Assembly: GCA_964619725.1 (NCBI GenBank)
Contig: CAZUFC010000078.1
Coordinates: 1-40,586, forward strand
DNA from: an uncultured bacterium
GTDB lineage: Bacteria; CSSED10-310; CAZUFC01
Length of the DNA: 40,586 nucleotides
Reading direction: 5' to 3'
Part shown: in pieces, positions 2,709 to 30,255 of the stretch
How positions within the stretch are numbered: position 1 is the first letter of the stretch
Layout of the letters: each line of letters begins with the position of its first letter
Translations under genes and position numbers: made by a program
Notes under the pieces: model-generated
What the model was told of the DNA's origin: nothing
The model's input: the letters and a program-made list of their open reading frames with translations, nothing else
Database searches by the model: none

Positions 2709-2912
2709 AAATATTTTTGGATTTCACGACAAGCAATATTGATATGATTTGAACCGTGATCCGTTTTCATCAAAAAAATTCACAATTCTTTTCAGGCACA
2801 TTGTCAGGAGCTCAGAATTTAGGCATTGATCAAAAATAAGTCTTTTGACGACACAATTCGGCAGAATATAACATCATCTTGTTTGATTGCGCTTGCGAAT
2901 TCGATAACGACA

Positions 2913-3095
2913 CCGATTACTGAAACAAACTGTCAAAAGTTTTCAAACAAGTGTAACCCCGATTTGATCAGTCCCGAAAAAACCGATACGTTTAAGTCCA
3001 TGCTTCGTCGCCAGCGACTCGCATCGACATAAGCGCATCTTTCCCATTTGCTGATGGAGACTTCACTCAGCCAATTTTTTTTGCAGGCATAAACT
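2913..3095. repeat. Dispersed intergenic repeat, copy 1 (~185 bp)
   Basis: Begins CCGATTACTGAAACAAACTGTCAAAAGT and contains AGCGACTCGCATCGACAT and TTCACTCAGCCAATTTTTTT. Colinear with 8439-8623; the 5' part also occurs at 4463-4526. Confidence 0.85.
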
Positions 3096-3850: not shown

Positions 3851-4181
3851 CTTTACCTCCTTGATAAAGTTGCATACATCCGCTGCGGATCATCCGCATA
3901 ATCCGGAAATGATCAAACAGCAGTAAGACTTTTTGCCGACAGAAAAATCAACTGAGTGAAATCCCCATTAAAACTGACAATTTCTCACTCTTGACGAAAT
4001 AACTTGCTGACTCTCGGTTTCCCCTTTAAATGCAATTGCTTGGAATGCCGGTTAAACGTGAGTGGATTGTTTGATAATTGGGCATTGATCAAAAATGATT
4101 CTTTTTTAGTTGCAATTCTACAGAATATCCTATCTTTTTGTTTCGATTTCGATCCCGATTGCGATCCCAATACCGCTAACT

Positions 4182-4447
4182 AGTGACTGTCCAGCATTAA
4201 ATTTTGAATCGACAATCGAGTTTATGGACAGGCACTAACTAGTTTTTGTCCATAAACGGCGAATTTCCCCCAATGATGCGTCAGGCTACGGATTGGCTTA
4301 GTCAACGTATAAGCAATCCCCCTACTTCGCAAATCCCTGCCTTCCTTGCCTTAAGAAAAATTCGCCCGTTTATGGATCAAAAACCGCAGTGACTGTCCAG
4401 CATTAAAATTTGAATCGACAATCGAGTTTATGGACAGGCACTAACTA
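4182..4447. repeat. Composite palindromic REP/MITE-like element
   Basis: Two ~60-bp direct repeats (4182-4241 and 4388-4447; AGTGACTGTCCA...TGGACAGGCACT, each self-complementary) flank an inner unit with inverted ends GTTTTTGTCCATAAACGGCGAATTT...AAATTCGCCCGTTTATGGATCAAAAAC. Confidence 0.8.
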
Positions 4448-4462
4448 ACCCGATACAGACCC

Positions 4463-4526
4463 CGATTACTGAAACAAACTGTCAAAAGTTTTGAAAGAAG
4501 TGTCATCCCGGTTTGATCAGTCCGAA
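4463..4526. repeat. Dispersed intergenic repeat, copy 2 (partial)
   Basis: CCGATTACTGAAACAAACTGTCAAAAGTTTT is identical to 2913-2943, and similarity continues to TTTGATCAGTCC. Confidence 0.85.
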
Positions 4527-4671
4527 AGAAACGGCGCTCGATGAAAAAACACCGGTGAGTTCGTTAAACAGAAAGATGAGGAAAAGGGTTGTTTTCTTAA
4601 TGGGGATTTCAATCACTCAAATATTTTATGAATAAGTGTAACCCCGGTTTGAACATTGACTGCGTTTTAAC

Positions 4672-5257: not shown

Positions 5258-6145
5258 TCATTCAGAAATATTGTCATTTAAGACCACTCTATCAACAATA
5301 AAGGCTATTTTGTCTGAAGATGATATCTCAAAATGCCCCTCCGTCGATTCAATGTCCGACAAGGAAATACCCATCTTTAAAGCGGCTGATTTCTGTGCCT
5401 TTAGTATCGCTCTGTCCAGGGCATGAGATACGTAAATGCTGCAGTCGATTTTTGAGAAATCTTCTCCGTATTTATTTCGCAAGAAATCAGTAATGGACCT
5501 GGTATAACTGCATTCCGGCAATGGTATGACGCGTTCGGCAGCATATTTGATGAGTTTCTGCTCGTCAATTAAAGCGAAATCCCGGGGAGCCGCAACAGGG
5601 TCCTTCATGAGGAATGTGTGATTTTCCGAAGCCTTCTGCATCTCAGCAATTAATACCACCTGGCCGGTATTCAGCAATTTGTGTATCTCATCCGTACTCT
5701 TGAATGAAACAGCGTAGGAGGCAACCATTTGACCTTCTGAATCTTCCTTTTCCGCCTCAGGGGCTTCCCTGTTGTCGGCATCAGATGACTGATCGCCGTC
5801 AATTTCTGTCTCCTTTGCCGTCACATCGTCATTTGCTTCGGAAAAAGATTCCGAATCCTCGAAATCACCTTCAATATCAGTTAGTTCATTCAATCTGCCG
5901 GATTCCTGGTTTTGTCGCACCTCTCCGCCGACAGGTTCAACGCCGCCGTAATCAATGGGATTGATTATGTCGACATCGGTTATTTCTTTTTCAGGAGGAA
6001 GCGACTTTTCCGTAACTAAAACGGATAAAATGCAGGAATCGGGTGGAGACGAATCACGGTTCAATAAAATGAAAGCGCCCGCCAGATGAAAAAGACACGA
6101 CAACAATATCCATTTCTTATGTCCATTCGGATGCATTTTACTCAC
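5258..6145 (-). CDS. TonB/TolA-like single-pass membrane protein
   Basis: N-terminal TM helix with S-x3-H motif (LLSCLFHLAGAFILL), acidic flexible linker and globular C-terminal domain. Overlaps the exbD-like stop. Confidence 0.65.
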   Translation of the reverse strand: MSKMHPNGHKKWILLSCLFHLAGAFILLNRDSSPPDSCILSVLVTEKSLPPEKEITDVDIINPIDYGGVEPVGGEVRQNQESGRLNELTDIEGDFEDSESFSEANDDVTAKETEIDGDQSSDADNREAPEAEKEDSEGQMVASYAVSFKSTDEIHKLLNTGQVVLIAEMQKASENHTFLMKDPVAAPRDFALIDEQKLIKYAAERVIPLPECSYTRSITDFLRNKYGEDFSKIDCSIYVSHALDRAILKAQKSAALKMGISLSDIESTEGHFEISSSDKIAFIVDRVVLNDNISE

Positions 6146-6572
6146 CTCCGTTCCGTATGCGCGTCAATTCATATATTTCCGTTATGCCATGCTCCTGCAT
6201 GATCTGCTTCAGCATTATAGATACGCCGTAAGGTGCATTTTTATGCCCTGCCAGTATCACACGCGGAACTTTAGTCGCCTCTTCAGAATCCGAATTCTTT
6301 AATGTTTCCAGTCGCTTTCCGATCTTGTCCAACTCCAGATGTTCGTCATTCCACCAGAAATTCTCTGCATCAAACGACAAAACCGTCGTATCCTTCGAGT
6401 TTACTGAAGCGCCCTTGCCTGACGATTCCGGCAAATGCGTCGTTACTGCCGTGTAAAGCGTTGGGGTGATCATTAGAACAAGCGTTATCAACATTATTAT
6501 GTCGATCATGTTGGTCAGATCGACCCATTCCTCGGAAGTTTCCCGGCCTGGGCGAATCTTTAATCCGTTCAT
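6138..6572 (-). CDS. exbD: ExbD/TolR family biopolymer transport protein
   Basis: VDLTNMIDIIMLITLVLMITP with the conserved TM Asp, then HLPES and VILAGHKNAPYG (cf. ADKxxxYG). SD AGGAGG. Confidence 0.88.
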   Translation of the reverse strand: MNGLKIRPGRETSEEWVDLTNMIDIIMLITLVLMITPTLYTAVTTHLPESSGKGASVNSKDTTVLSFDAENFWWNDEHLELDKIGKRLETLKNSDSEEATKVPRVILAGHKNAPYGVSIMLKQIMQEHGITEIYELTRIRNGGE

Positions 6573-7218
6573 TTTTTCCTCCTTTATTTTTTTCCTTCAA
6601 ATAGGTCGAATAATGCAGCAGCAAAGAATCCATTAGACTTTTCGCCTGCTCAAGCCTCTGCTCGATCAAGAAACGCGTTGCCGCAACCGCTGTTAACGCC
6701 GTCATAACGCCGAACAAAGTAGTGGTCAACGCCGTCTCAAAACCCGCAATAATTCCCGAATTGCCTGACGGACTGCCGGCATAAACCTTCAATGCTTCCT
6801 GAACCCCCACCAGTGTCCCCGCCAATCCAGTCAATGTCGCTGTCCTCGCCAGAATCCCTCCAACTCGAACCCTTCCTGCATCCAGTAAGTCGTAGATGCT
6901 CCGTGCCTTTAAATAAGCTCCTTCTAACGAAGGCTCTTTTTCAATAATAAAACGGGCAAGCTGATCAATTATGGAATCATTCCTCTTCAAAGTTCTTAGA
7001 TCAATGCTGGTCGGCATGCCAGGCTTTTCAGCAGTCGAAAATTTTGAGCTTAAAAAAACAAGATTCTGCTCTGATGCAGAAAGATTACGTTTCATCCTCA
7101 GATAAAACGAAAAACCGGAGAAAAATAAACTGACCGCCCAAAGGCTTTGCAAAACAAGAAAACACCAGATAACCTCTCTCACGCCCAAATGCTCCAATAT
7201 TTTAAATGCCCATGACAT
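6370..7218 (-). CDS. exbB: MotA/TolQ/ExbB proton channel family protein
   Basis: ATLTGLAGTLVGV (cf. GLxGTVxG) and AGFETALTTTLFG (cf. GIxxALxxTAxG); three TM segments. The conserved part ends near 6570, and the last ~67 codons overlap exbD. Confidence 0.88.
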   Translation of the reverse strand: MSWAFKILEHLGVREVIWCFLVLQSLWAVSLFFSGFSFYLRMKRNLSASEQNLVFLSSKFSTAEKPGMPTSIDLRTLKRNDSIIDQLARFIIEKEPSLEGAYLKARSIYDLLDAGRVRVGGILARTATLTGLAGTLVGVQEALKVYAGSPSGNSGIIAGFETALTTTLFGVMTALTAVAATRFLIEQRLEQAKSLMDSLLLHYSTYLKEKNKGGKNERIKDSPRPGNFRGMGRSDQHDRHNNVDNACSNDHPNALHGSNDAFAGIVRQGRFSKLEGYDGFVV

Positions 7219-7319
7219 AATTTAACCTCCTCATTTTCGGGTGCGCATAACCGATAAAAGAGATACAAAGGTCTCAATAATGAGCCTTTTTACTCTTTCA
7301 TTGCAATGCTGAATCGGCC

Positions 7320-7358
7320 GGCCGCCGATACGGGCAGAAAGTCCCATACCGGCGGTCG
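7320..7358 (-). other. GC-rich intergenic stem-loop
   Basis: Minus strand CCGCCGGTATGGG-ACTTTCTG-CCCGTATCGGCGG forms a 13-bp stem with G-U pairs. There is no U-tract, so it is not a classic intrinsic terminator. Confidence 0.55.
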
Positions 7359-7450
7359 CCTTTGATGCGATGCCTCCTTTCATAAATGCTTAATCAGTCA
7401 AAAAACAGAACTGCTCGAAATAGGCTATATCATTGAAAAAATGAAAAGCC

Positions 7451-8212
7451 TTAATTCGCGTTAAAAAGGATCACTGTATAGCCGATATAACCGCCGCGAT
7501 ATGGATTTATCTTGATCCTCCAGCGACGCCTGTTGCAGCTCCCGTTGGAATCGTAAACAGTGTCGAGACCGTGAGTAGAAATCGACTGATAACGAAAAAC
7601 ATAACGGGAGCCGTTCCAGACCCACAAATAAACATCCGGGTCCGCATTTGAATTCCTCGCCGGTCCCGTCGTCGCAGTGATCATGTCGGATCGAGGATAA
7701 ATATAAAAATAACTCCCGCTGCTCCTGTATGTCCGGCGCACATAACGATAGGCAGACCGTGAACAGGAAGATCGTGAATCATCCTCATCCGATGCAATGG
7801 TCACACCCCACAAAAGCTCTTCATCAGGATCATATTCCCACAGCGTCGTCGTTGCCGTCACTCCGACGCCAGAGTATTCATCCTTCGCCGCATATTCATC
7901 GTCTCGCTCAATCACTGTCGATTCAATATAATCACTGATTATCAGCTCCAGGTCATCCCGCTCCCGCGCTGAATATAAAGTCGCTTCACCATAAAAATCC
8001 GCTTCTGAACCGGGCAAAGTGAAATCAACGCAAACCTCATGACTCGCCAGTATCCAGGACCATTCCCCGTCAAACTCATCCAATTGCACTCTGGATGCCT
8101 CCAGGTCAGCAGCGATCGCCGACCCCCAAAAAACCGATACTAAAGCAAAAATGACCATAGTCGCTCTCAATTGAGCCCTCCCTGAAAAAGTTGATAAGTT
8201 AATCCTAAACAA
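7451..8212 (-). CDS. Putative secreted protein with C-terminal PPC-like beta domain
   Basis: Signal-peptide-like VIFALVSVFWGSAIAA. C-terminal ADPDVYLW...SISTHGLDTV...WRIKINPYRGGYIGYTV resembles pre-peptidase C-terminal domains. Start uncertain (TTG 8212 or ATG 8158). Confidence 0.65.
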   Translation of the reverse strand: MFRINLSTFSGRAQLRATMVIFALVSVFWGSAIAADLEASRVQLDEFDGEWSWILASHEVCVDFTLPGSEADFYGEATLYSARERDDLELIISDYIESTVIERDDEYAAKDEYSGVGVTATTTLWEYDPDEELLWGVTIASDEDDSRSSCSRSAYRYVRRTYRSSGSYFYIYPRSDMITATTGPARNSNADPDVYLWVWNGSRYVFRYQSISTHGLDTVYDSNGSCNRRRWRIKINPYRGGYIGYTVILFNAN

Positions 8213-8438
8213 AAACAGAGAAAAAAACTGATATCACCTCCTTTCTTCTGAAAAAGGCACGAAACATACGAGAATCCTGTTTAATCACTCCGAATATAGT
8301 TAAATAACTTCTTTGCAAAATAATTTAAACTATTGTAAAATAAGACAATAATTAGAAATGCATCTTTTGAGGTTACACTTCAATAGAGTATCCTATCATT
8401 TTTCGATTTCGAGTGCTAAGCTGATCCAGATAGCGCCC

Positions 8439-8623
8439 CCGATTACTGAAACAAACTGCCAAAAGTCTTTAAAAAACCAACCCCCCGTTTAATCGGTCCC
8501 AGAACAACAACCCCCGATAGGCTAATGTCCCTACTTCGTCACGAGCGACTCGCATCGACATATGCTTCTCTGTCCCCTTTACTGATTGGGATTTCACTCA
8601 GTCAATTTTTTTGCCGACAAAAA
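8439..8623. repeat. Dispersed intergenic repeat, copy 3 (~185 bp)
   Basis: Colinear with 2913-3095 (CCGATTACTGAAACAAACTG, AGCGACTCGCATCGACAT, TTCACTCAGTCAATTTTTTT). Confidence 0.85.
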
Positions 8624-9164: not shown

Positions 9165-9391
9165 CTTTTTGTCAGGACCACTTCGGGGTCAGCATTATTG
9201 TTTCAGGCGTGTGTAATAGTCAGTAATCAAAGAGTCGAATTCTAAGCATTAGAGTATCGGCGGGTTGTTTTTCTTATTAGTCAGAGCCCAGACATCTCTT
9301 TTCTTAGGTCCATTATAAATGATGGGATATTTTGAATAATTGTAACCTCAAAAGACCCATTTTTGATCAATGCCGGGAACCTATACCCGCT

Positions 9392-10828
9392 TCAGCGATA
9401 CAATTCAATATCCTGGGCTTCAATGACATCTCTTCCGTTCATTACGGCATTGTATACGGCTCTCGATGCGAGGTCTTCCAGCTCTCTGAAGTTTCCTCTG
9501 AAGATGTGGGTTTCAATCTTTTCGAGGGCTTCTATTGTGATGCCGCAGATTTCTTTTCCGTTATTACCTTTGGATTTATTTAATTTAGGGTCCTGCAGGA
9601 CATAATCAATAAGGACGCGCAAGTCTGATTTCCTCTGGTGCATAGGCGGCACTTTCAGTTTATACCGGAATCTGTGGTAGAGATCGTCCCTGAAATTTCC
9701 GGCTTTGATTTCTTTTTGAAGGTCCTTGTTGGTGGCGGCTATGATATAGGTAGGAGAATAAATGGGTTCCAGGTAGGGCCATCCGAGAGGTTGGAACGCG
9801 AACCTGTCAAGATATACAAGGAGTTTCGCCTGTAGAGCGGGAGGAGCGTCTCCGATTTCATCCAGGAACACGGTTTGACCCCAGGAAAGGAGGAGGCGCC
9901 CGGGACGCGAAACAGAGCCGGTGAATGCTCCGTGAACAGAACCGAAAAGTTCCGTTTCCAGAAGCTCTTCTGAAACGTTGACCATTGGAATTTGCGTCAA
10001 ATGGCCTTTTCCCGCATCGGAAAGACGCTGATTCAACCATCTGGCGATTAGCGTTTTACCGGTCCCAGTTTCGCCTTCCAGCAGAATGGCAGGCGGCCTG
10101 ACTACAGATTCTGGCTTTATATAGTTTTTGAGGTCGGTTTTTATTTCTTTTAATTTTTTACTTTTTCCGGTCTGCTCGCTTAATGCTTCTCCAATCCTGC
10201 GAAAAATATCCAGTACATCCTGGGCGTCCGTAAAAGGTTTATCGTTTGCCTGCATCCGGTAATTTCTGACCCTGTCGATGGTATAAAGCAGATGATGAAG
10301 AAAATCAATCATCTTACTGTCGAGAAAAAGACTCACAAAGGGACGCTCACGGTAATCAGAATCCTTCGTTTGAATTTTCCATCCCAGACTCTTACAAGGT
10401 AATTTCTCTCCTCTCCTCCTGAGACTCCTTCTGACCTCCTGCTTGATTTTCGCCGCCAGATGTCCGCATTCCTCCGGGTCCTCGAAACTCCTCGCCCTGA
10501 ATATTGAATTAATAAAAAAATACCGGTGGTCCATGACTTCGTTCACCATATCAGCATTGTATTCTTCCGCTATCAGAATGACAGGAATATTCTTCACTTT
10601 CAGCTTATCCATCAGAAGAGATATACCCTTCATCTGCGATATGACCAGCAAAGGATCATTCAGATTCTCCACCGCCAGTCGTTCCGGTTTCATTCCTTTA
10701 ACGGAGATGCCCAGAAACTCCTTCTTCGGCCTGATCTCTGACTCGGCGTATTGCTTGATGAATCCCTCTATGATTTGCCGGTGTCTTTCATTATTGGAAA
10801 TTACTATTATTTCTTTGGCGTTATCCAT
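9392..10828 (-). CDS. Sigma54-dependent AAA+ activator (bEBP) lacking a C-terminal HTH
   Basis: Walker A GETGTGKT, ETELFGSVHGAFTGS, Walker B FLDEIGD, AATNKDL, FRDDLYHRF and GNFRELE. The protein ends just after the AAA lid. The N-terminus looks like a degenerate receiver-like domain. Confidence 0.93.
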   Translation of the reverse strand: MDNAKEIIVISNNERHRQIIEGFIKQYAESEIRPKKEFLGISVKGMKPERLAVENLNDPLLVISQMKGISLLMDKLKVKNIPVILIAEEYNADMVNEVMDHRYFFINSIFRARSFEDPEECGHLAAKIKQEVRRSLRRRGEKLPCKSLGWKIQTKDSDYRERPFVSLFLDSKMIDFLHHLLYTIDRVRNYRMQANDKPFTDAQDVLDIFRRIGEALSEQTGKSKKLKEIKTDLKNYIKPESVVRPPAILLEGETGTGKTLIARWLNQRLSDAGKGHLTQIPMVNVSEELLETELFGSVHGAFTGSVSRPGRLLLSWGQTVFLDEIGDAPPALQAKLLVYLDRFAFQPLGWPYLEPIYSPTYIIAATNKDLQKEIKAGNFRDDLYHRFRYKLKVPPMHQRKSDLRVLIDYVLQDPKLNKSKGNNGKEICGITIEALEKIETHIFRGNFRELEDLASRAVYNAVMNGRDVIEAQDIELYR

Positions 10829-10897: not shown

Positions 10898-11896
10898 TCA
10901 ATCGCAGTTACGCTCTTCTATGGATTCCTTCAACTTTTTAAGTCTTTCCCTTTTACCCGGAATGCCGTATTTTTCCCTCAGATGCCTTACCACATTTTCC
11001 GTGAGGGATATCTTGTATTGACTCCCGAATTTTCTGTTTATCTTCCTCGCCAATATCTCATCATTGCATGCCGGATCATATTGAAGGCAATCGCGAATAA
11101 AATCAGTCGCCATGTTTTTTATATACCGGGGGATTTTCTCTTTCCTTCTTGCGTCGAAAGAACAGAACAATTTTAGCGGAAAAACTCCCATATGAGTGAC
11201 CCGGACGAAACAGGAACTGATTAAATTGTAAAGCAGTTCTTTCGACGGCGGTTCCCAGTCTTCATCCCACATCCCGGATATTTCATTGCGCAAGTCGGTC
11301 TGCGAAACTTGATGGCGGTTCATTTCAGCCATGAATTCTTCTCTGGTATTCGTCAGAAGAGCATCCCTGAAAGTCGAAAGAATAAATTGTCCAATATAAT
11401 TGAGGATGCATAACTTTCGATCCATACAGTTCTGAACCTGCAGTCCCGTAAACGTATTTTTTCTGATTAGCGGTTGTTCGGAAGGATAGGCATTCAGCTC
11501 ATTACCGAATCGTGCAACCGTTATTGATGGAACCGAAGCCAGAGTATGCCGAGTATTCAATTGCGCCGAATCGCATAATTGACCTTCAATGTCAATACTT
11601 TCTCCCGAATCAGGCTCGAAAGCTTCATCATCCCATTCCCCGCCCAATATATCATCAACATCCCATTCTTCATCAGGTGATCCATCATCCATATCCCAAT
11701 TTTCATCATCCGGTTCCGATTCCGGTTTTTTAACTTCAACTCCCTTTAAATCATCATAGTAAGTCGCAAGCCAGGCGATATTCTTGTTTTCCGGAATTTG
11801 AGTTATTCGAGATAACAATTTGTTGCTGATTCCAAGGTCTGCATTTTTTCTTTTTTTGCCGGTTATCTCATTTGATTGCCCTAATTTCTTCTTCAA
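10898..11896 (-). CDS. Divergent, shortened sigma54 (RpoN)-like factor
   Basis: C-terminus VRVTHMGVFPLKLFCS...NDEILARKI...ISLTENVVRHLREKYGIPGKRER is colinear with RpoN (TPRGIFELKYFFS...SDxxIA...IARRTVAKYRExLxIP...R). Acidic Trp-containing region II-like tract. TTG start with AAGGAG 9 nt upstream. Confidence 0.8.
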   Translation of the reverse strand: MKKKLGQSNEITGKKRKNADLGISNKLLSRITQIPENKNIAWLATYYDDLKGVEVKKPESEPDDENWDMDDGSPDEEWDVDDILGGEWDDEAFEPDSGESIDIEGQLCDSAQLNTRHTLASVPSITVARFGNELNAYPSEQPLIRKNTFTGLQVQNCMDRKLCILNYIGQFILSTFRDALLTNTREEFMAEMNRHQVSQTDLRNEISGMWDEDWEPPSKELLYNLISSCFVRVTHMGVFPLKLFCSFDARRKEKIPRYIKNMATDFIRDCLQYDPACNDEILARKINRKFGSQYKISLTENVVRHLREKYGIPGKRERLKKLKESIEERNCD

Positions 11897-11997
11897 TATT
11901 TATTTCTCCTTTCTTTTGAGTTCAGCTATTTTTTTATCGCGATTGGACCATGACAAAAGCAGTGATCAAAAAATTTAAATTCCCTGAACAATTAACT

Positions 11998-14900
11998 TCA
12001 CGGCAATCCTAAAATCATTTTGCTTTTATTGCCGGGCGATGTTTTTTCGCCGTCATTCCATGCCGCTTTTGCGATGACTCTGATTGCATCACGGAAGGAA
12101 GCCCGTGCCAGGAAATGCCTGTTTTCATCATTGGCGGCGTCTTTGATGCTCCTGATATAACCGTTCCGGATCATTCTTTTCAGGACTATTTCAAAATGCC
12201 TGTCGTCGACTGAATCCGTGTATATTGAACGCAAATAAGGCATGAAAAAGTCATAGACATTTTGTACGTCAATCTTACCTTCTTTGATTTTCACTGTGAT
12301 TATTCCATCCAGGTTAAGCAGCGACTGGACAAATTCCAGGCTTATGCCTGAACCGGCAAGACCGCCTGTATGAAAAGTTTGCATGCTGAGCTGAGTGCCC
12401 CGTTCTCCGACAGACTGTCCGGCAATGATGCCGACCGGAAGTCCAAGTTCCGGAAACCGTCGCTGACTTATATCCCATCCATAACATCTCGCGCATATCC
12501 CTTCTGTCTCTTTGCAGGTCAGGGGCGATCTAATCCGGATACTTTTTATTTTTTTTATCTCGATCTCCTTCATTGCTTCAGGTGTGATGACGCTCCCTCG
12601 GAACAATCCGCCTTTATTTTCTGCAATAACTCTTCCAATCAGTCTTTTGCGGATATTATCCGAATCGATTTTAACGGTAATTCCCGGAATGGATTTCGTC
12701 CTGCCGGCGCAGCAGTCCTCGACGACGATGGCTACGGGGTAGCAGGCTTCAACTAAAATTCTGGTGAAATTTCCGGCTACTGGCGTTTTAAGTTTTTTAT
12801 CGGCCAGTGTCTTCCGGGAAGCTTTCAGCGACATGAAATATTCCATAGGCGGGATGCCCTCAAGAAAATTGGACAGGAAAACATGCGGTATTTTTCCTTT
12901 AACGCCCTCCAATATGCCCCTGAATCCACCCAACTGGGAAACCTGGTCGGCGTTGCCGCGGGCGCCTGAAGCGAACATCAATGCCAGAGGATTCGGAGGA
13001 GATTGACGGGCCAGATTATATAAAGGCTCAACAATTTTCCTTCTCATTTCTTTAGTCTCTCGCAGCCATTGGCAGTATTTTCTGCGTTCAGCCATGCTCA
13101 AAAAAGGGATATCGAAAAGGGAGAAGGTAATCCCGGCGAGAGTCGCCTCTCTGAATGCCCATTGCATTATTACGTTTGCAAGGCGGGCTGTTTGCCGGGG
13201 CAAGTCTTCCTCCGCCGATTTTAAGGCTTCAGCGAGAATTCGCTTTGTAACTGGACCGGAGAAGCTTTTATCAGATTCTGCGCCGAAAATGTAAAACGGA
13301 TCATTCTTTTCCGAGGCGTAGTAAACGCCGGCAATTATGTCCTGTGCCAGATGCAGATTCAAATCACCGTTTGCTATGGACAGAAGATTACGTTCCGGCA
13401 ACAGGCGTGAAGCCTCATCAATCGACTCGCGTTTCAAAGGCAGATATACCGCCATCGTATCTCCATCAAAGTCTGCGTTGAAACCTGCACATACCAAAGG
13501 CGGCAATCCGATCACGTTGTCCGTCCGTCGTACTGCATGAAAAGCCTGGAGACTCAATCGATGAAGACTGGGCGCTCTGTTCAGAAGCACGGTGAATCCG
13601 GCATTTTTACTTTCCGTCAAAGGCAGAAAAGCATCATATATGCGAGCCGGAAGCGCAGCCTGGTTGATTTCCAATGAAGGGTCGGGGACTATCACGGCCC
13701 TGGCCGAACAGTCTTGTCTTCTCCCCAGCAATCCTTTCCTTAAAAGTCCCTTTTTCCCGGTAAGATGATCGCTTATAGAGCCCCTGCTTTTTCCCGCAGC
13801 TACTCCGGGATATCCCATCAGTCTTTCTACCGCATACTGAACGCCCTTTTCCGCCTTACGAATAGATGCTGGACCGCTTTTTTTTTTGGTCTTCAAGTAT
13901 TTAAGAAACGAGTTCTTTTTTATTAGTTCAGAATATCTCTTATGGAGCGGCGACGGTATCGGGGTTTCAGGAGCATTTATGTAATGACGAAAAGCGGCAG
14001 GGACCACGGGAATCATCGATAGAAAACATCCTTCTGGCGGTTCTTTATTCTTTAACTGCAATAAACGGAAAAGCGCTTCCGGGCCGGTAACCGCTTTACC
14101 GCCATTCCTCAGAATACTTTGCCCCTGAACGTTCGTCAGAATTGAGCCGGCTTCTGATTCATCCTCTTCAGCGCCCTCAAGAAGAACATATTTTTCTCCA
14201 TGGGCAATATCCCTTATTACCGCCGCTTTAACATCATCAAGGTTTTTCATCAGCGGCGACCCTGAAATATAAATCTGCCAGGGGTGTATGACGCAGCAGT
14301 CCAATTTGACGTAAGCGAATCTGGTTCTGTATTCTCTCGTCCCTGCGTCTCCGATGATGGACGTATCCATCAATCCGCCCGGCCTGGGTACGTATATAGG
14401 TTCTTTCACTCTCCTTCGGATGATGCCTTTGCATTTTAATTTTTTACACCGTCTTTTATTTTCATCGCTGCGGACTCTCTTCCAATGTTTACTTGAAAAA
14501 TCGTAGATTTCGCCGCATTTGTCACACTGAAAGAAAACAGGTCGATATATTTCAAAGGGATGGAAATCACCCACAGTTATTTCTCGCAAACCGGCAGTGA
14601 ATTTTTCCATATCAGAAGGAGTGATAGCGAAATCGACAAGTTCATCGGGCGTGATATCTTCCGGTTTACTGACGATAACGGGTTTTTCTCTGGTTTTATA
14701 GAACAATTGAAGGTCCAGCCCCAATCCTTTCAGGTAAACCGCTAGCGCCCATAGCGTCCAGTTTAATTGTTTTTCCCCGCCGGCATCGCCTTTGTCATCA
14801 GAATGTGAGACTACTCTTCCGGCGCCGTCAATGAGCGATTCTTTTACGATCGCTTTTGCATTATAAGCCTGAAGCGCCCAGAATTCCATTTCACCCATTT

Positions 14901-17673
14901 TTTGGCCGCCGTTATGCTTCTTGCCTTTTAAAGCCTGACGGGTAACCAGATCGTATCCGGTTCCGCCCTGACGAACCGTGAGTTTGTCGGCCGCCAGGTG
15001 ATGGAGCTTCATAATATACTGGTATCCGACTGTTACCGGTGCATCGAACCCTCTTCCCGTTTTCGCATCAATCAATACCGATTTTCCTTCCGGATACCCG
15101 ATTCGTTTCAAGCGGTCACGAAGCCGGTTTGCTTCTGTCGTATGAAACGGCGGTATGATAAAATGAGTGTTCTCCTTATATGCGATCATGCCCAGGTGCG
15201 TTTCAAATATCTGGCCCAGGTTCATTCTTGAAATGACGCCGTGAGGATTAAGAATGACATCAACCGGCGTACCGTCGGGCATATGCGGCATCTCATGCTC
15301 CGGGAGCATGAGTCCTATAACCCCTTTATTGCCGTGACGCCCCATCAGCTTATCGCCTACTGCTATTTTTCTTTCTGTTAAAATCCTTATAGAGATGATT
15401 TTTTCGGGATAATGAGCAAAAAGGTCTGCGCCGGTATATTGCGTCTGCACATCATAAACTTCACCCTCAAGTCCCGGCCAGGCAGTTACTTCACCCTTTT
15501 CCGTATGCATCAGAACAGTCCCGGGAACGACTTCGGCGCCTTTTCTGATTATTCCGTTAATGTTCAACATGCGACGATCTCTTCCGCGTGGGCCCTGATG
15601 TTTAATAATATTGCCCGGCCATACAGGAATTCGAATTTCCTTCTCATGAAAAGACGTCAACAGATTATCCCTGACCAGCCTTTCGCTGATTACAACGGCA
15701 TCCTCGAAATTGTAACCTTTCCAGGGCATATAAGCAGTCAGAAGATTTCTGCCGAGAGACAGAATGCCGTTTTTAACCGACGGACCTTCGGCCAATATCT
15801 CTCCCGCTTCAACCTTCTGTCCCGGCGAGACTGAAGGACGCCTGTAAACCGGAATTTTCGTGTTGCCGCAACGGACCCGGCCTATATCGACTTTTATCGT
15901 TTTCCCTTCTGAATTCTCCAGAACTATTAATCCTTTATCTCGCTGAATTCTTCGGATTCTTCCCGTCTGCTTCGCTCGCACGATCATCCCGGCTGCCTCC
16001 GCTGCAAGCGCTTCAAATCCTGTTCTTATTAATGGAGGTTCAGGATTAACAAGCGGCAATGCCTGTTTCATGTTTTTTGCAGCCATGATCGCCCTGGCGC
16101 CGTCGTTATTTCCTATGAAAGGTATAAGCGATGCCGCATAACCTAGGAATTGACCGGGAAAATTTTCAGCCATTACGGCTTCTTCCTGACGATCATCATA
16201 AATTAATGTGCGCTCCCGACCGCCGATCCTGGACCTCCTCATGCATTCAACATATCCGTCTGCTGGTCCGGAAGACAATGATCTCAATCCGTATCCGGGG
16301 TCAGCGAATCCAGGACTGCTCCCGAAAAATGGACGCCTTTCATTTGCCGGCGGCATCATTGTGATTCCCGAAACGCTTCTTGAAGGACTCGCTATTCTGC
16401 CTTCCTCATCAATCGATGCATACGCCGCCAGAAACAAGTCCAGTCCTATCCCTTCCGACTCAGGCGTCTCGACAGCACATAAACGTCCGTAATGACTTGT
16501 ATCCAGGTCACGCCTGGCAAGCGGCGTCACTTTTCGGTCCAGTCCGGACGGACCGCCGAAACTGATTTTCCGCTGCGAACTCAAAATTGATACAGGATTC
16601 CTGTCTTCAAACAACTCGCAGCTCTCTTTAAAAAAATTGCCTAATGATCCCTCCAATGCATACGGCATGCAGAACCAGACAGGGCTGTTCTTGTTAATTT
16701 TCTCTCTATTCCCGGCTAATTTGCGCATAAGTATAAACAACGACCATCTCACCGCCTGTTCCAATCGGTCACCAGCCAGTCTCACCCGATAGCTCTCCAG
16801 ATCATTCAGGTCCTCAGCGCCCGGCCAGTCAGCGCCGAGAAACTCAGAAGCAACCCGCACATCACCGGCTGTTACATACTTCTCTTCATTGACCGCCAGA
16901 CATGTCCGGTTTATCGCCTTCCTCCCGTCTCTGCCCAATGCGAAATAAATATTGTCGTAAAATGGCGTTTTGAAGTACGCATTGACCGGACCTCGACCAC
17001 GGAAGAAGCGCTCGCTCTCAAGCAGCTCCAGAAATTCCTCCAGGTCGATCTTCACCGATCCCATCCGGATACGCTTCCGAACTCCCTTTTTAGTTACAGA
17101 GCCTACAAGGTTAAAATGAGGCCCGAAACGGGGCTGAAACCTTATTATTCGCTTCCTGCCGCCTTCAGCCGATAGGAAATGCATGCCCGGAGAAAAATAA
17201 AAATAACCCGTCGGCGACCATTCCACAGCATGGCCTGTCCTGTTTTTCCTGATAAATGTCCCCCAGCCCGTCATACAGGGAAAAGGGCCTAATCTGAGTT
17301 CAGAATCCCATTTATGTTCATTATCGAATAAAACTTCTGTCTCTAATACAACTTCTCGATTGTAATCCGTTATGCCTTGCCTGGCAAGCTCTTCATCAGG
17401 ACCGGGCGTCTCAATTTTATAACCCGTAAAATTCAAACGAATATTACGGTCTTGCGATTTTATCGTCAGCCCGGAAGCCTCCTTTAATACCTTTTTCAAT
17501 CCCCTTTCATGCAGACTTTCATAAGCAGCTCCTGAATCAAGAGCCTTAGTCTGCAAAAAACGGTCATAAGATTGAATATGAGGCGGTTCTGCGGAAGCGC
17601 CGTATTTTTTTAAGCCTTCCAACCACTTATCCATGACGGTTTTTCCAGCTATTTCTGAATTAAATACTTCCAT
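11998..17673 (-). CDS. Fused, streamlined DNA-directed RNA polymerase beta-beta' subunit (RpoB-RpoC-like)
   Basis: Beta motifs: HYGRLCAVETPE, GYNFEDA, GDKLMGRHGNKG, NPHGVISRMNLGQ, GGQKMGEME. Beta' motifs: LLNRAPSLH, NADFDGD (13459-13479), SGARG, CARCYG, GTQLSMQTFHTGG. One continuous ORF of 1891 aa; alternative start at 17634. Confidence 0.96.
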   Translation of the reverse strand: MEVFNSEIAGKTVMDKWLEGLKKYGASAEPPHIQSYDRFLQTKALDSGAAYESLHERGLKKVLKEASGLTIKSQDRNIRLNFTGYKIETPGPDEELARQGITDYNREVVLETEVLFDNEHKWDSELRLGPFPCMTGWGTFIRKNRTGHAVEWSPTGYFYFSPGMHFLSAEGGRKRIIRFQPRFGPHFNLVGSVTKKGVRKRIRMGSVKIDLEEFLELLESERFFRGRGPVNAYFKTPFYDNIYFALGRDGRKAINRTCLAVNEEKYVTAGDVRVASEFLGADWPGAEDLNDLESYRVRLAGDRLEQAVRWSLFILMRKLAGNREKINKNSPVWFCMPYALEGSLGNFFKESCELFEDRNPVSILSSQRKISFGGPSGLDRKVTPLARRDLDTSHYGRLCAVETPESEGIGLDLFLAAYASIDEEGRIASPSRSVSGITMMPPANERRPFFGSSPGFADPGYGLRSLSSGPADGYVECMRRSRIGGRERTLIYDDRQEEAVMAENFPGQFLGYAASLIPFIGNNDGARAIMAAKNMKQALPLVNPEPPLIRTGFEALAAEAAGMIVRAKQTGRIRRIQRDKGLIVLENSEGKTIKVDIGRVRCGNTKIPVYRRPSVSPGQKVEAGEILAEGPSVKNGILSLGRNLLTAYMPWKGYNFEDAVVISERLVRDNLLTSFHEKEIRIPVWPGNIIKHQGPRGRDRRMLNINGIIRKGAEVVPGTVLMHTEKGEVTAWPGLEGEVYDVQTQYTGADLFAHYPEKIISIRILTERKIAVGDKLMGRHGNKGVIGLMLPEHEMPHMPDGTPVDVILNPHGVISRMNLGQIFETHLGMIAYKENTHFIIPPFHTTEANRLRDRLKRIGYPEGKSVLIDAKTGRGFDAPVTVGYQYIMKLHHLAADKLTVRQGGTGYDLVTRQALKGKKHNGGQKMGEMEFWALQAYNAKAIVKESLIDGAGRVVSHSDDKGDAGGEKQLNWTLWALAVYLKGLGLDLQLFYKTREKPVIVSKPEDITPDELVDFAITPSDMEKFTAGLREITVGDFHPFEIYRPVFFQCDKCGEIYDFSSKHWKRVRSDENKRRCKKLKCKGIIRRRVKEPIYVPRPGGLMDTSIIGDAGTREYRTRFAYVKLDCCVIHPWQIYISGSPLMKNLDDVKAAVIRDIAHGEKYVLLEGAEEDESEAGSILTNVQGQSILRNGGKAVTGPEALFRLLQLKNKEPPEGCFLSMIPVVPAAFRHYINAPETPIPSPLHKRYSELIKKNSFLKYLKTKKKSGPASIRKAEKGVQYAVERLMGYPGVAAGKSRGSISDHLTGKKGLLRKGLLGRRQDCSARAVIVPDPSLEINQAALPARIYDAFLPLTESKNAGFTVLLNRAPSLHRLSLQAFHAVRRTDNVIGLPPLVCAGFNADFDGDTMAVYLPLKRESIDEASRLLPERNLLSIANGDLNLHLAQDIIAGVYYASEKNDPFYIFGAESDKSFSGPVTKRILAEALKSAEEDLPRQTARLANVIMQWAFREATLAGITFSLFDIPFLSMAERRKYCQWLRETKEMRRKIVEPLYNLARQSPPNPLALMFASGARGNADQVSQLGGFRGILEGVKGKIPHVFLSNFLEGIPPMEYFMSLKASRKTLADKKLKTPVAGNFTRILVEACYPVAIVVEDCCAGRTKSIPGITVKIDSDNIRKRLIGRVIAENKGGLFRGSVITPEAMKEIEIKKIKSIRIRSPLTCKETEGICARCYGWDISQRRFPELGLPVGIIAGQSVGERGTQLSMQTFHTGGLAGSGISLEFVQSLLNLDGIITVKIKEGKIDVQNVYDFFMPYLRSIYTDSVDDRHFEIVLKRMIRNGYIRSIKDAANDENRHFLARASFRDAIRVIAKAAWNDGEKTSPGNKSKMILGLP

Positions 17674-18968
17674 GCTTCCTCCGGCGTCATCGCGCCGTTC
17701 GTTGAAATTTTAAATTTTAAATATTCGCCTTCATTAACCCAGGAAACCCGGTCAACAGCGACAGGAGATTCCGCCGCAGGCATAACCAAAACATTACCCT
17801 TGTCGACACGTTTACTCTCCCCGACGGCTCTTCCGCAACGCCTCTCAATGAACAACTCAATATCAAACTCGGCAGACTCATCCATCGTCGCAACATGCCG
17901 CCCTGGATCATTCACATCGCTGAACATGATTCGTCCACCCTCCAGAATGACTTTCCCAGCTTCCGCGAATTTCCTGCCCATTTCGCTCTGAACGGTAAAA
18001 AGGTCGCCGGCAGTCAGTTCCCCAGGTCCCTTGTGCTTCGTCAAGACCCTCCATCGACTTTCCTTCCGGTGATTCCTGATCGCTATACGGCCCATATTCT
18101 GCATTATTTCATACACGGTCTCAGAGACACCGCATACCGCATCAAAGATATGCTGAATGGTCCGTTCGCCGCTTATATCATTGATCCTTATTCCCGTAAT
18201 CGACGGCCTGGGGATGGAACCCATCAGAAATCGCCGAACAGATGCTGCCGTGAATCGAACGAAATCCTCTTCCAATCCGACCGTCGGCAACCTTACGACG
18301 GCAATATTCTCCGCTTTTTCCAGGAATTCATATCCCGCAAAAGCATTTCGCAACCGCCGACCACGCTCATGCTTGGACAGCGCAGAAGGCTGAAGACGAA
18401 AAGCTCCCCTAAGTCCATGACTGATCCTTTTCAACTCCTCTTCATTCCCCGATTTCAACTCAACTTCCAACTCGAAAAATTCAATCCCAAGCAGGAAATC
18501 AGGATAACGAAACCTGTCCAGAGCAACCTCCATGCACACACGCTCATCCCGAACCAGCTCCAGAACAATACGGCGATTTTCCACAGCTATGTCCGACTTC
18601 AGCTTATATCCCTCAGCTTCCAGCTTTTCCTTTAAATCCACGCCGGCGTGTTCCGATAAAAATCGTCGCATAATTTCACCCTCATCATCCCCATTTTCGT
18701 CCATCACCAGCTCATGCTCCTCTCGCATATGCACCGCATCATCAAGTTTCACATCTCGCTTCAATGTCAACTTCCTCTCGTTCGCCCGCTCCCGGACCCG
18801 AAAATTCAAACCATGTTCCCGCAACAATTCGCCTTCCATATCAAAATATTCATCACGCTGAAATACAGGCCCACCCGTCAGCTTAACCCCATATTCACCC
18901 ATCCTCCTCATGCATGACAGTTCAGTAAAAACTTCGTCGTTTCCGATATACTTCGATTCCGTTTCCAT
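17649..18968 (-). CDS. CYTH (triphosphate tunnel) domain fused to RNA polymerase alpha N-terminal domain
   Basis: Residues ~1-205: ETESK (ExExK), QRDEYFD, FRVRE, LTLK, VALD, ELEVELK, SKHERG = CYTH. Residues ~210-439: VRRFLMGSIP, GVSETVYEIMQN, GPGELTAGD, ISTNGAMTPEEA = RpoA NTD. No alpha-CTD. Confidence 0.9.
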   Translation of the reverse strand: METESKYIGNDEVFTELSCMRRMGEYGVKLTGGPVFQRDEYFDMEGELLREHGLNFRVRERANERKLTLKRDVKLDDAVHMREEHELVMDENGDDEGEIMRRFLSEHAGVDLKEKLEAEGYKLKSDIAVENRRIVLELVRDERVCMEVALDRFRYPDFLLGIEFFELEVELKSGNEEELKRISHGLRGAFRLQPSALSKHERGRRLRNAFAGYEFLEKAENIAVVRLPTVGLEEDFVRFTAASVRRFLMGSIPRPSITGIRINDISGERTIQHIFDAVCGVSETVYEIMQNMGRIAIRNHRKESRWRVLTKHKGPGELTAGDLFTVQSEMGRKFAEAGKVILEGGRIMFSDVNDPGRHVATMDESAEFDIELFIERRCGRAVGESKRVDKGNVLVMPAAESPVAVDRVSWVNEGEYLKFKISTNGAMTPEEAWKYLIQK

Positions 18969-21334
18969 TAATTATCCTCCAGGGAGGAATAGAAAGGGAA
19001 AGAGGGTTTATTTTGCTTCCTTAACTCCCACTGATCTTTCCACCAGTAATTAGCAGCCAGGTTCATTTTATCTGCGGCATATCCGGAAACCTGTTTGAAT
19101 TCGCTGCTGACCTCTTTTTCGATTGTCTTCTTCAGCGGTTCATCATTAAACACAGTTTTATCCAACAATTTTTTCCTGACAGCTTCTTCATCGGGATGCA
19201 GAATAATATGGAATTCAAAAGCGTTATCTGAAAAGTCGTTATCAGGCATTACGTCAATTTGACTCACTGCGCTGTGTTTTATGTAATGCCGCGCCTGTCC
19301 ATCCAATAGACGCCAACGATCTATCGCTTCTGCTGCAGCTAACCATAATCTGGCACACTGCTTCTTAGGGGAAGGAGCCATTGGATCATGCAGTACCTTA
19401 AGACATTCTATTCTTGTTTTGCGATTTTCATCATCCAGTTCTAATGTTTCTTTTTTCTTTTTAAAGCGATTAAACCACTCTGTTTTTTCAGAACAATCAG
19501 GAGAAGCCTTAAAAGCATCAATAGCCATATCCATTTTACTTAAAGCCGCAATACAGTCCTTCTCAAGCATCAATTCGGATAAACCCTTTCTGAATTTTGA
19601 ACCCGCTCGTCTAGCCTGGCTGTCGCAACCGTCTATCAGACGTATAAGGGCTACAACCTTCATCAAATCCACATTGCATTCGTTCATATAATATTCAGCT
19701 TTCTTCTTTAACGAGCCGGGCCATTGTCCTGTAAGATGAAGCATCCCCTTCTTTTTTCCGCTCTCATTATCATGGTCCATCCTTCGACGATGATATAGAC
19801 AAGCAAGGATAACTGCCTCATGAATGCGCTCATCAAATCCTTTATCCCTAAATCCATCTTTGCCGGGCCATTCAATGTAGTTCGCCGTTTTTACATCATT
19901 CAAACGTATTCCCGCGAGGAACTGATGATAATCCCTTACGTCATCGGTGAATAGCGGAATTATATCGGGTAATCCGTGTACGGTAATTTCACCGAAAAGA
20001 TTAGAAAGTTCGCGGGATTCTTCCAGGGACAAACTGTTTACCGAATGACCGCAATCATGCAGTAGTACAGTCGCAATTAAAATGAAACGTTCACTTTCGT
20101 TGAAAAATCTCGGAGCATGATGAAGAATGGGCGTTAAAAATAACTCGGTGAATTCCAACAAATCATGATGATGCATCCTGGCGTGATCAACCATTTCAGG
20201 AATCTTATCGCCTAACCAGATTATGTCGCCGACTTTGTCGATTATTTTGTGCAGTATGTTCTTTAATTCGAAAATATCGGTTTTTTTTGCAGACCACCAT
20301 TCGATATCCTGATTAGTCAGATTTTTAATTCTACGACCGCCTACAAGCGGACTGTCAACATTCAGAATCCTGTCAACAATACTCTTTGAATAGACTTTTA
20401 ATGGGTCTACAGAAATTTGATCATCGTATCTCAATTTCAATTCATTACCGAATACCGAAAGCGTTTTTCTTCTGTCCGCTTTTTTCTCGCTACCCTTTTT
20501 TTCCTCTTTGCTGTCATGAAGTAAAAGTTTTACCGGATTCTCCGGCATAAAATATTTCGTACTCCCCAACTCCAGGACCATTTTCAGTCTCAATGCATTT
20601 TCGTGCCATTCCCTAAAATCCAATCCGATCGGATAAGTGGGAATAAAGATCAAATCGCGGGAGTCCTCAAACAGATAAGCGATTTCAACTTTTTCCCTGT
20701 GAAGTGTCGCCATGAGTGTCGAATAAGGAACCGTTCCTTTATAACCACCTGTTGCATTTAATAGAATTCGTTCACACCCTCTGTTTTCAACCAGATCATT
20801 GATCATTTCTTTTATCTTCGCCATCCAGTTGTGGAAGCCTGACCTCTCGAATTCGCTACCCTTTTCTGCATTCACATCTTTTGCATAATCTGAATCAAGA
20901 TTGAATTCAGCAGAATACCAATCTCGCCACGGTTCATTTTTCAGCACATCAGCAATTATAACCGCACAGTTTCTGGATTCATATGTGTCTGAAGGAAGAA
21001 ATTTGACTATATCTCCTTCCTCATTACTGTTTTTATTCGTTTGAGCGTATGCCCAAAGGTAACTCAACTCTTGCGGCATCCGATCAGTCGGATGATATTT
21101 AGTCTTGTTTCGGTAATCGAATTGTCTTTTCGGGTCTAATTTAAGTATGTTAGTCACGATTCTATCTCGAGGCGTTTTTGCATTTCGAGAGTTCAGATTA
21201 TATGCAAGGCATTCGGTTCGCCTGTTGATTTCGTCGATAACATGATTTTCATTTTTTTTGCGATCATTTCGGTATTCCTCACCTCTATTGGTGATTAAGG
21301 AAGTCCCTACTGTAAGAATATGCCCAGTTTTCAT
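18968..21334 (-). CDS. CRISPR-associated CARF (APE2256/Crn1-like) plus HD-domain protein
   Basis: N-terminal ILTVGTSL, PQELSYL, LPSDT, LNATGGYKG and YLFED match the APE2256-type CARF. C-terminal MVDHARMH, LLHDCGH, RDYH, CLYH and LIRLIDGCD give the HD phosphohydrolase metal ligands. Confidence 0.87.
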   Translation of the reverse strand: MKTGHILTVGTSLITNRGEEYRNDRKKNENHVIDEINRRTECLAYNLNSRNAKTPRDRIVTNILKLDPKRQFDYRNKTKYHPTDRMPQELSYLWAYAQTNKNSNEEGDIVKFLPSDTYESRNCAVIIADVLKNEPWRDWYSAEFNLDSDYAKDVNAEKGSEFERSGFHNWMAKIKEMINDLVENRGCERILLNATGGYKGTVPYSTLMATLHREKVEIAYLFEDSRDLIFIPTYPIGLDFREWHENALRLKMVLELGSTKYFMPENPVKLLLHDSKEEKKGSEKKADRRKTLSVFGNELKLRYDDQISVDPLKVYSKSIVDRILNVDSPLVGGRRIKNLTNQDIEWWSAKKTDIFELKNILHKIIDKVGDIIWLGDKIPEMVDHARMHHHDLLEFTELFLTPILHHAPRFFNESERFILIATVLLHDCGHSVNSLSLEESRELSNLFGEITVHGLPDIIPLFTDDVRDYHQFLAGIRLNDVKTANYIEWPGKDGFRDKGFDERIHEAVILACLYHRRRMDHDNESGKKKGMLHLTGQWPGSLKKKAEYYMNECNVDLMKVVALIRLIDGCDSQARRAGSKFRKGLSELMLEKDCIAALSKMDMAIDAFKASPDCSEKTEWFNRFKKKKETLELDDENRKTRIECLKVLHDPMAPSPKKQCARLWLAAAEAIDRWRLLDGQARHYIKHSAVSQIDVMPDNDFSDNAFEFHIILHPDEEAVRKKLLDKTVFNDEPLKKTIEKEVSSEFKQVSGYAADKMNLAANYWWKDQWELRKQNKPSFPFYSSLEDN

Positions 21335-21348
21335 GTTTTATTTACCCT

Positions 21349-30027: not shown

Positions 30028-30255
30028 ACACAATCTCCTTCCTCTATGGTTTAAAGTTTTCTATTTATTCTGAGTCGATTAGCTAAACTCGATCCTTCTG
30101 CTTTCAACTCCAATTTCATGACGATGAATTCCATGACCGAATTAAAATTTTTCTGCTGTGAAAAATTGATTTTCCGTTTTCGTCCCTTTCGATTATCTTC
30201 ATCAGTTTACACCTGGATAATTACCCACACATCTCAAAACTTTTGTTATTAACAG

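Follow-up and report, generated by a model that had tools for sequence, protein, structure and literature searches.

We describe here a gene that very probably derives, over the greater part of its length, from the DNA-binding half of sigma-54. It lies on the minus strand at positions 10898 to 11896 of contig CAZUFC010000078.1, from the genome assembly of an uncultured bacterium of the CSSED10-310 lineage (GCA_964619725.1); the stretch analyzed, positions 1 to 40,586 of that contig in nucleotides (nt), is called the window below. The product (P0001) has 332 amino acids, and it is residues ~120 to 320 that we trace to sigma-54. The sequence by which sigma-54 reads its promoters, the RpoN box, is rewritten in this protein, neither the core-binding domain nor region I is recognizable, and the gene stands between those of a trimmed RNA polymerase and a sigma-54-type ATPase. 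We think it probable that the protein is the promoter-specificity factor of a private, ATPase-gated polymerase encoded in an operon of the CRISPR system. Such a factor would bind the polymerase of its own locus, depend on the neighboring activator, be tied to CRISPR signaling, and have target promoters of its own.

The open reading frame (ORF) is a real, conserved gene. Its TTG start follows 9 nt after a ribosome-binding site, AAAGGAG, and a phmmer search of 1,835,955,588 representative proteins returned two relatives besides the protein itself: P0002, with 295 residues, 31% identity, and E = 8e-32, and P0003, with 283 residues, 30% identity, and E = 5.8e-4. A word-index protein search returned the ORF itself and then P0003. 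The full-length alignment of the three proteins has 41 invariant columns, and since the relatives are similar in length to the ORF, the short architecture is native rather than a truncation. Because remote members escape a search of one phmmer pass, three is the minimum size of the family. The ORF is present in 1 of the 14 genomes examined from the phylum, namely, its source genome, and no related locus was found in scans of genome, metagenome, and viral contigs or by tblastn of plasmids and phages. A contig of 15,881 nt, from a public run that may be the window's own source, spans positions 11339 to 27219 with no differences, and parts of the region are matched by short contigs that come from three further samples of that study; the matches listed comprise DNA runs of this one microbial-mat study, with no RNA run among them. 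The suggestion that the ORF is a chance open frame draws on the lack of family matches and on nothing further, and it is countered by the strength of the P0002 match, the conservation of motifs along the whole length, the ribosome-binding site, and the identical sequence in contigs from further samples of the study. The phmmer relatives already refute it, and we leave it practically no probability.

The relationship to sigma-54 appears in profile comparisons. A hidden Markov model (HMM) of the three-member family, compared with 177,635 distinct PDB sequences, gave two matches at E ≤ 10, the top one being Aquifex aeolicus RpoN (5ui5_I; E = 0.016, 17.6 bits), with an alignment that runs from the recognition helix of the helix-turn-helix (HTH) through the RpoN box to the C terminus. 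When hhalign aligned the family with 10 canonical sigma-54 proteins, P was 4.1e-4; the 91 columns of the alignment are collinear, place ORF residues 219 to 318 on residues 393 to 488 of the RpoN of the host, and end at the C terminus; the alignment was reproduced, with a score of 37.1. That score is far above its controls, which gave 16.6 with the sigma-54 alignment reversed, 17.1 with the family alignment reversed, and a mean of 15.7 (standard deviation, 2.5; maximum, 23.8) after column shuffling, with 0 of 122 shuffles reaching the real value. The match to the sigma-54 DNA-binding domain partly supports a preliminary description of this DNA, which had called the protein a minimal sigma-54. 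The best conserved stretch common to the ORF and the host RpoN is the hairpin that follows the recognition helix, GVFPLKLFC in the former and GIFEIKYFF in the latter.

Structure prediction points the same way. In the AlphaFold2 model, residues 1 to 149 are disordered and residues 150 to 332 form a block with predicted local distance difference test (pLDDT) values of 57 to 89. We compared models with 48,161 representative chains in a search independent of Foldseek. For the full model, the structure of the RpoN domain on DNA, 2o9l_A, ranked second (Z = 6.7, root mean square deviation of 2.1, 60 of 63 residues, 22% identity). Third came 5ui5_V, with model residues 121 to 319 lying on chain residues 213 to 397 (149 of them collinear). 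Residues 115 to 255 folded alone gave a pLDDT of 73 and a predicted template modeling score of 0.68, and their two best matches among the 48,161 chains were both sigma-54: 5ui5_V (Z = 6.5, 94 residues aligned) and 8re4_M (Z = 5.8, 103 aligned). Chains of sigma-54 make up 12 of the first 22 Foldseek rows for the full model; when the long-helix part of the protein was compared again, with 123 chains of the Foldseek list, the top five were all sigma-54 (Z = 7.3, 7.2, 6.3, 6.1, and 5.5), and the next reached 3.9.

Two successive domains can be assigned on this basis. Residues ~120 to 250 (positions 11147 to 11539, minus strand) are predicted to form a long helix, an HTH, and a beta-hairpin, the counterpart in predicted fold of the extra-long helix and HTH (ELH-HTH) with which sigma-54 reads the -12 element; the sequence profile covers only the last part of these residues, and the long helix has 25 residues, compared to about 39 in canonical sigma-54. 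Residues ~253 to 320 (positions 10937 to 11140, minus strand) correspond to the C-terminal RpoN domain, the three-helix bundle that reads the -24 element, an assignment on which the profile, hhalign, and the model agree.

A number of results weigh against a kinship with sigma-54, or against the role that we propose. Pfam gave no family at E ≤ 10 for the ORF, P0002, or P0003, NCBIfam and PADLOC gave no matches for the ORF, and the ORF is below the curated threshold of Sigma54_DBD (PF04552) and of every other curated family. BLASTP against the 491-residue host RpoN found a misplaced 14-mer at E = 0.38 and nothing else, phmmer of the ORF against the PDB returned no sigma-54, and the ELH-HTH part alone had no sequence match in the PDB. 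The reciprocal test failed: with filters off and 283 sequences searched (281 frames of the window plus P0002 and P0003), an HMM of 10 canonical sigma-54 proteins from the same phylum gave the ORF -1.6 bits (E = 12, rank 13), P0002 0.0 bits, and P0003 -3.6 bits. The Z-scores of the full model are middling and tied with those of generic winged-helix domains, the best unrelated chain for residues 115 to 255 has a Z of 5.6, close to the 6.5 and 5.8 of sigma-54, all Foldseek E values exceed 0.2, and the AlphaFold models rest on a three-sequence alignment of a family known from three members only. We know, moreover, of no precedent for a sigma factor that lacks a core-binding domain. The ESM Atlas look-alike score of the ORF, 0.80, is an uninformative value. 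Given that the direct searches were negative, the similarity to sigma-54 is a remote one.

Some of the same results would suit a quite different protein, an unrelated winged-helix or HTH regulator that resembles sigma-54 by chance or convergence: generic winged-helix domains score Z = 5 to 7 against the C-terminal domain, Foldseek found nothing significant, and the reciprocal HMM test was negative. What such a regulator does not explain is that two successive domains match two domains of sigma-54, in the same order and ending at the C terminus, that an unbiased profile search of the whole PDB ranks RpoN first, and that the hhalign controls fall so far below the real score. We give this account little credence.

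In its RpoN box the protein departs from canonical sigma-54. The profile alignment sets TENVVRHLRE (positions 10973 to 11002, minus strand, residues T299 to E308) exactly on the ARRTVAKYRE of the host protein (A469 to E478), with 3 of 10 residues identical (V, R, and E), and the two arginines that read bases in the consensus are both replaced. The rewriting of the box in the preliminary description is therefore correct. The replacements differ within the family, the arginine pair being E-N in the ORF, Q-G in P0002, and L-D in P0003. According to the available portion of PMC12096077, it is probably R455 and R456 that read bases in sigma-54, and R456H, R456Y, or R456L alone produces promoter preferences that are mutually orthogonal. 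Since the arginines are replaced here and R456 changes yield orthogonal pairs, a -24 specificity that is altered, and that varies within the family, can fairly be inferred. The altered promoter specificity proposed earlier thus stands as a reasonable inference from the replaced arginines and from that work.

Of the N-terminal half of sigma-54, neither the core-binding domain nor region I can be recognized. Alignment of the ORF begins at about residue 120, which corresponds to residue 281 or 282 in the numbering of the Klebsiella pneumoniae type and to residue 213 of the Aquifex protein; the accessible part of PMC5095919 places the core-binding domain at residues 120 to 250 of sigma-54, and the fact that the alignable part of the ORF begins past this domain supports its absence. 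Ahead of the DNA-binding half stand only ~120 residues, predicted to be disordered, and these match neither the core-binding domain family, PF04963, nor the region I family, PF00309. In a six-frame search of the 9.17-Mb assembly, Sigma54_CBD and Sigma54_AID were found only in the canonical rpoN gene, on another contig: PF00309 matched that gene alone, and PF04963 at E ≤ 1 had three matches, none of them on the contig of the window. On the absence of a core-binding domain the preliminary description was right.

Its finer assignments in this half fared less well. The stretch LLSRITQIPENKNIAWL, put forward as a possible region I, the segment VPSITVARFG, equated with PDVIV, and the box TENVVRHLRE all lie within the 332-residue ORF at the coordinates given for them. 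The N-terminal parts of the family and of sigma-54, aligned by hhalign, gave P = 0.75, a value that lends no support to either of the first two assignments, and the strand that precedes the long helix (residues 125 to 128) is only compatible with the model. The acidic, tryptophan-containing segment taken for region II, residues 55 to 106 (positions 11579 to 11734, minus strand), is predicted to be disordered and is indeed acidic, with 23 D+E (44%) and 3 W among 52 residues; P0002 and P0003 have kept this acidic character and one of the Trp columns (W78), but the likeness to region II is one of composition only. Residues 1 to 30 (positions 11807 to 11896, minus strand) form a Lys/Arg-rich tail, likewise predicted to be disordered, with 9 K+R in 30 residues, which is missing from both relatives. 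A short, conserved, amphipathic helix at residues ~40 to 51 could be an analogue of region I. Strictly speaking, a protein with no core-binding domain, no region I, and no consensus box does not count as a sigma-54; we treat this one as a variant derived from that family. The preliminary description holds in part, in that it recognized a very divergent relative of the sigma-54 DNA-binding half with a rewritten box and no core-binding domain.

The genes on either side of the ORF suggest a function for it. Those between positions 30033 and 11998 all lie on the minus strand, each overlapping or adjoining the next; the ORF starts 101 nt after the last of these, and the next gene starts 69 nt after the ORF. 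The gene that precedes it (positions 11998 to 17673, minus strand) encodes a trimmed, fused RNA polymerase beta-beta' of 1891 amino acids, which BLASTP maps to residues 363 to 897 and 1048 to 1339 of Escherichia coli beta and residues 95 to 514 and 715 to 984 of beta', with the catalytic motif intact (7 of 7 residues). Before it lies a gene for a protein of 439 residues, in which a CYTH domain is fused to an alpha N-terminal domain and the alpha C-terminal domain is lacking (positions 17649 to 18968, minus strand). The CYTH domain, a triphosphate tunnel, comes first in this fusion, and the neighboring CARF protein matches the PADLOC model CARF7--CARF_CYTH_HD; the existence of that model implies that CYTH recurs in CARF-linked effectors. 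The CARF-HD, CYTH-alpha, and beta-beta' genes mutually overlap. The host has canonical rpoB and rpoC genes on another contig and a full rpoN of its own, and therefore the set in the locus is an additional transcription set.

The available text of PMC5095919 lists the places on core where the core-binding domain of sigma-54 docks, and we asked which of these can be aligned in this enzyme, bearing in mind that nonalignment by BLASTP is no proof of loss. The beta C terminus (residues 1267 to 1320, 48 of 54 positions aligned) and the beta' clamp helices (260 to 310, 46 of 51) are largely aligned. About half of the beta flap is (835 to 937, 53 of 103), with its flap-tip stretch (890 to 915) aligned at 8 of 26 positions; the beta' dock (370 to 420) is aligned at 19 of 51, and the beta' zipper/Zn region (35 to 100) at 6 of 66, with a Cys4 motif in the linker. 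The pattern is compatible with a joint loss of the docking domain from the factor and of several docking sites from the polymerase. The preliminary description went further, to coevolution of the factor with the trimmed core and to orthogonality to the host RNA polymerase, both of which are conjectural. Prediction of a complex between beta-beta' residues 991 to 1555 and the ORF gave a score of 0.00, which speaks neither for nor against binding. Relatives of the trimmed fusion far outnumber those of the ORF; they have 1,500 to 2,300 residues, show 31 to 43% identity, are without the beta lobe domains, and belong to several phyla. This beta-beta' family (P0005 to P0026 and others) is mostly unannotated; the source names include Jettenia, Vicinamibacterales, Desulfacinum, Nitrospirota, and Thermodesulfovibrionales. 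A tblastn search of plasmids with beta-beta' found only ordinary rpoB and rpoC.

The gene that follows the ORF (positions 9392 to 10828, minus strand) encodes a sigma-54-type AAA+ activator of 478 residues (Sigma54_activat, PF00158, E = 2.2e-36). Bacterial enhancer-binding proteins contact sigma-54 through a loop of the GAFTGA type, and members of this class that have no DNA-binding domain are known. The activator appears to be one of the latter: its translation contains the loop as GAFTGS, together with Walker A (GETGTGKT) and Walker B (FLDEIGD) motifs, and it ends 3 residues past the AAA lid (residues 398 to 475 of 478), with no match to an HTH family. The AAA+ part matches the PADLOC model RtcR_PspF2 at E = 9.5e-48. 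Its N-terminal 215 residues, which match no family, have an ESM Atlas score of 0.84 toward receiver-like domains, a lead only; by eye, the usual acidic pocket is missing.

It is conceivable that the ORF has kept only the DNA-binding function of its ancestor and never touches a polymerase, acting instead as a repressor, an activator, a roadblock, or a decoy substrate for the ATPase. That half is the only one retained, the core-binding domain and region I being undetectable, and the accessible part of PMC5095919 describes an RpoN domain that makes no contact with core or with other parts of sigma-54 and so could act independently. The position of the gene, between a private polymerase and an enhancer-binding-protein type of ATPase that lacks a DNA-binding domain, argues otherwise, as does the statement in the available part of PMC7175178 that ATPases of this kind have no known substrates other than complexes of the sigma-54 holoenzyme. 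Furthermore, the text of PMC5505868, as far as it is accessible, reports that the ELH-HTH and region I of sigma-54 directly contact the polymerase and keep DNA from entering until they are displaced by the ATPase, so that loss of the core-binding domain need not abolish binding. We regard a role apart from the polymerase as unlikely. A specificity and gate subunit is the best reading because the ELH-HTH module has been kept beside an ATPase that has the sigma-54-contacting loop but no DNA-binding domain.

As such a subunit, the protein would consist of a disordered, basic and acidic tail of ~120 residues followed by diverged DNA-reading domains of the -12 and -24 types, and it would hold the CYTH-alpha/beta-beta' enzyme in a closed state on a noncanonical promoter. 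The adjacent AAA+ ATPase, without a DNA-binding domain, would be the dedicated opener, driven by ATP as in sigma-54 systems, and the N-terminal tail might serve as the handle for the ATPase or as a substitute contact with core. The type III-D CRISPR-Cas system encoded with it may then have the whole module as one of its outputs, and the trigger could be cyclic oligoadenylate, sensed by the CARF protein, by the CYTH domain, or by the activator at its N-terminal domain. In its most extended form, this would be a complete private transcription system within a type III CRISPR-Cas locus, made up of a minimal polymerase, a factor without a core-binding domain but with its own promoter code, and an AAA+ opener, and giving host-orthogonal transcription after target RNA is recognized or after a phage shuts down the host polymerase. 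We put this extended form forward tentatively, as a possibility somewhat short of an expectation.

The canonical sigma-54 promoter follows the pattern TGGCAC-N5-TTGCW. With up to two mismatches allowed, the window contains 4 matches, compared to 15.8 expected, and hence no enrichment. This count bears on a further alternative, that the ORF acts on host machinery, either binding host core or competing with host sigma-54, while the ATPase activates the host sigma-54 holoenzyme. The host does have canonical rpoN, rpoB, and rpoC, and the accessible text of PMC4012209 presents defense-linked NtrC-like ATPases as thought to work through host sigma-54. Against this, canonical-type promoter matches in the window are below chance, canonical promoters are unlikely targets for a protein with both box arginines replaced, and the domain that docks sigma-54 on host core is missing from the ORF. 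An action through the host enzyme seems quite improbable to us, and the private polymerase remains the partner that we favor.

Three minus-strand genes have upstream of them a conserved core of 28 nt that faintly resembles a -24/-12 element; it was considered as a promoter and rejected. It has 280 copies in the 9.17-Mb assembly (136 forward and 144 reverse, with up to three mismatches), compared to 0 for a reversed-pattern control, and being spread genome wide, it is a dispersed repeat and not a locus-specific promoter. The intergenic module of ~260 nt to which this core belongs is repeated at positions 2819 to 3081, 4078 to 4532, and 8341 to 8612, with an inverted piece at 9317 to 9374; it looks like a dispersed repeat of the miniature inverted-repeat transposable element or repetitive extragenic palindromic type. 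The repeat explains a spike in read depth and the many loose contig ends at positions 9338 to 9375, and it supports the binning of the contig with the assembly. Rfam found nothing in the window.

Upstream of the polymerase genes is a type III-D-like CRISPR-Cas locus. The nearest gene, at positions 18968 to 21334 (minus strand), encodes an effector of 788 residues with a CARF domain (CARF7 type) and an HD-CE domain, and positions 21349 to 30033 (minus strand) hold effector genes for a Cas10 with a GGDD motif, for Csx10-, Csx7-, and Csx19-like proteins, and for other RAMPs. The Cas10 is recognized by PADLOC at E = 3.4e-48 and has its GGDD intact, with no match to an N-terminal HD domain. The module is thus encoded in one operon with an intact-cyclase Cas10 and a CARF effector, as expected of a type III accessory module, in this single locus. 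The CRISPR array, in which a 37-nt repeat occurs 78 times, follows at positions 31291 to 36940. Its cas-proximal end has three degenerate repeat units in duplicated 106-nt blocks (positions 30992 to 31330), and at its other end is an AT-rich stretch with 35% G+C (positions 37001 to 38000). Together these features suggest that the leader lies at the far end and that the array is transcribed on the minus strand, in the same direction as the cas and polymerase genes. The 78-spacer array has a plus-strand skew of A over T of +0.16 to +0.22, as expected if the spacers come from transcripts.

Other genes of the window lie farther from the module. Separate genes for a reverse transcriptase (338 residues) and Cas1 (340 residues), overlapping by ~95 nt, are found downstream of the locus at positions 609 to 2553 (minus strand). 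Beyond the array and divergent from it, positions 37845 to 40055 (plus strand) encode a protein of 736 residues with a C-terminal WYL domain, possibly a regulator of the locus. Downstream of the activator and a repeat-filled gap of 1.2 kb, positions 5258 to 8212 (minus strand) encode ExbB- and ExbD-like proteins and two proteins that belong to no family, one of 253 and one of 295 residues. Public contigs break at positions 9340 to 9375, which makes it less certain that this block is linked to the polymerase module.

Compared with canonical sigma-54 (the 491-residue host protein, Aquifex aeolicus sigma-N in 5UI5, and the K. pneumoniae and E. coli holoenzymes 8RE4 and 9MSJ), the ORF shares the hairpin motif G-x-F/V-x-L-K-x-F-F, the R-E that ends the box, a run of acidic residues ahead of the structured part, and an ATPase of the enhancer-binding type, here encoded next door. 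It differs in being 332 rather than 491 residues long, in having no core-binding domain or recognizable region I, and in being encoded with its own polymerase. The engineered R456H/Y/L variants resemble the ORF in that a base-reading arginine of the box is changed, in their case with a new -24 preference as a result, but as described in the available portion of PMC12096077, they are single substitutions in a full-length factor that works with the host RNA polymerase, whereas the change in the ORF is natural, affects both arginines, and varies within the family. Naturally shortened sigma-54 genes are described for meningococci in the accessible part of PMC6755734; these atypical RpoN forms are decayed, losing the HTH and/or the RpoN box while keeping N-terminal parts, whereas the ORF keeps the reverse half and is conserved in distant relatives.

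Two known systems join type III CRISPR or defense genes to transcription. In CalpL-CalpT-CalpS, as set out in the available text of bioRxiv 10.1101/2024.05.08.593097, a sigma factor likewise takes part in the response of a type III CRISPR locus; CalpS, however, is of the extracytoplasmic function type (sigma-70 family), is set free by a protease, and works with the polymerase of the host, whereas the ORF is sigma-54-like and comes with an AAA+ activator and an operon-encoded polymerase. The RtcR-like CARF-AAA+-HTH activators treated in the accessible text of PMC4012209 are, like the activator here, NtrC-type AAA+ ATPases linked to defense genes, but they carry CARF and HTH domains, neither of which is detectable in our activator, which instead adjoins a private sigma-54-like gene.

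The literature that we searched, outside which most subscription journals fall, describes no sigma-54 without a core-binding domain and no polymerase in a CRISPR operon. Sigma-54 is presented in the available part of PMC5095919 as a single, highly uniform family in which the core-binding domain is the best conserved part. If our reading is true, then sigma-54-style, ATP-gated initiation can dispense with the domain that is held to fix sigma-54 to core, and the module would be a minimal model for such initiation. It would also offer synthetic biology a ready-made orthogonal triple of polymerase, sigma factor, and activator. The interest of the ORF rests mainly on the whole module around it, which would represent a new output of type III CRISPR systems, transcription by a private enzyme in place of a nuclease, a protease, or a pore, and which makes testable the idea that CRISPR expression persists when phages shut down the host polymerase.

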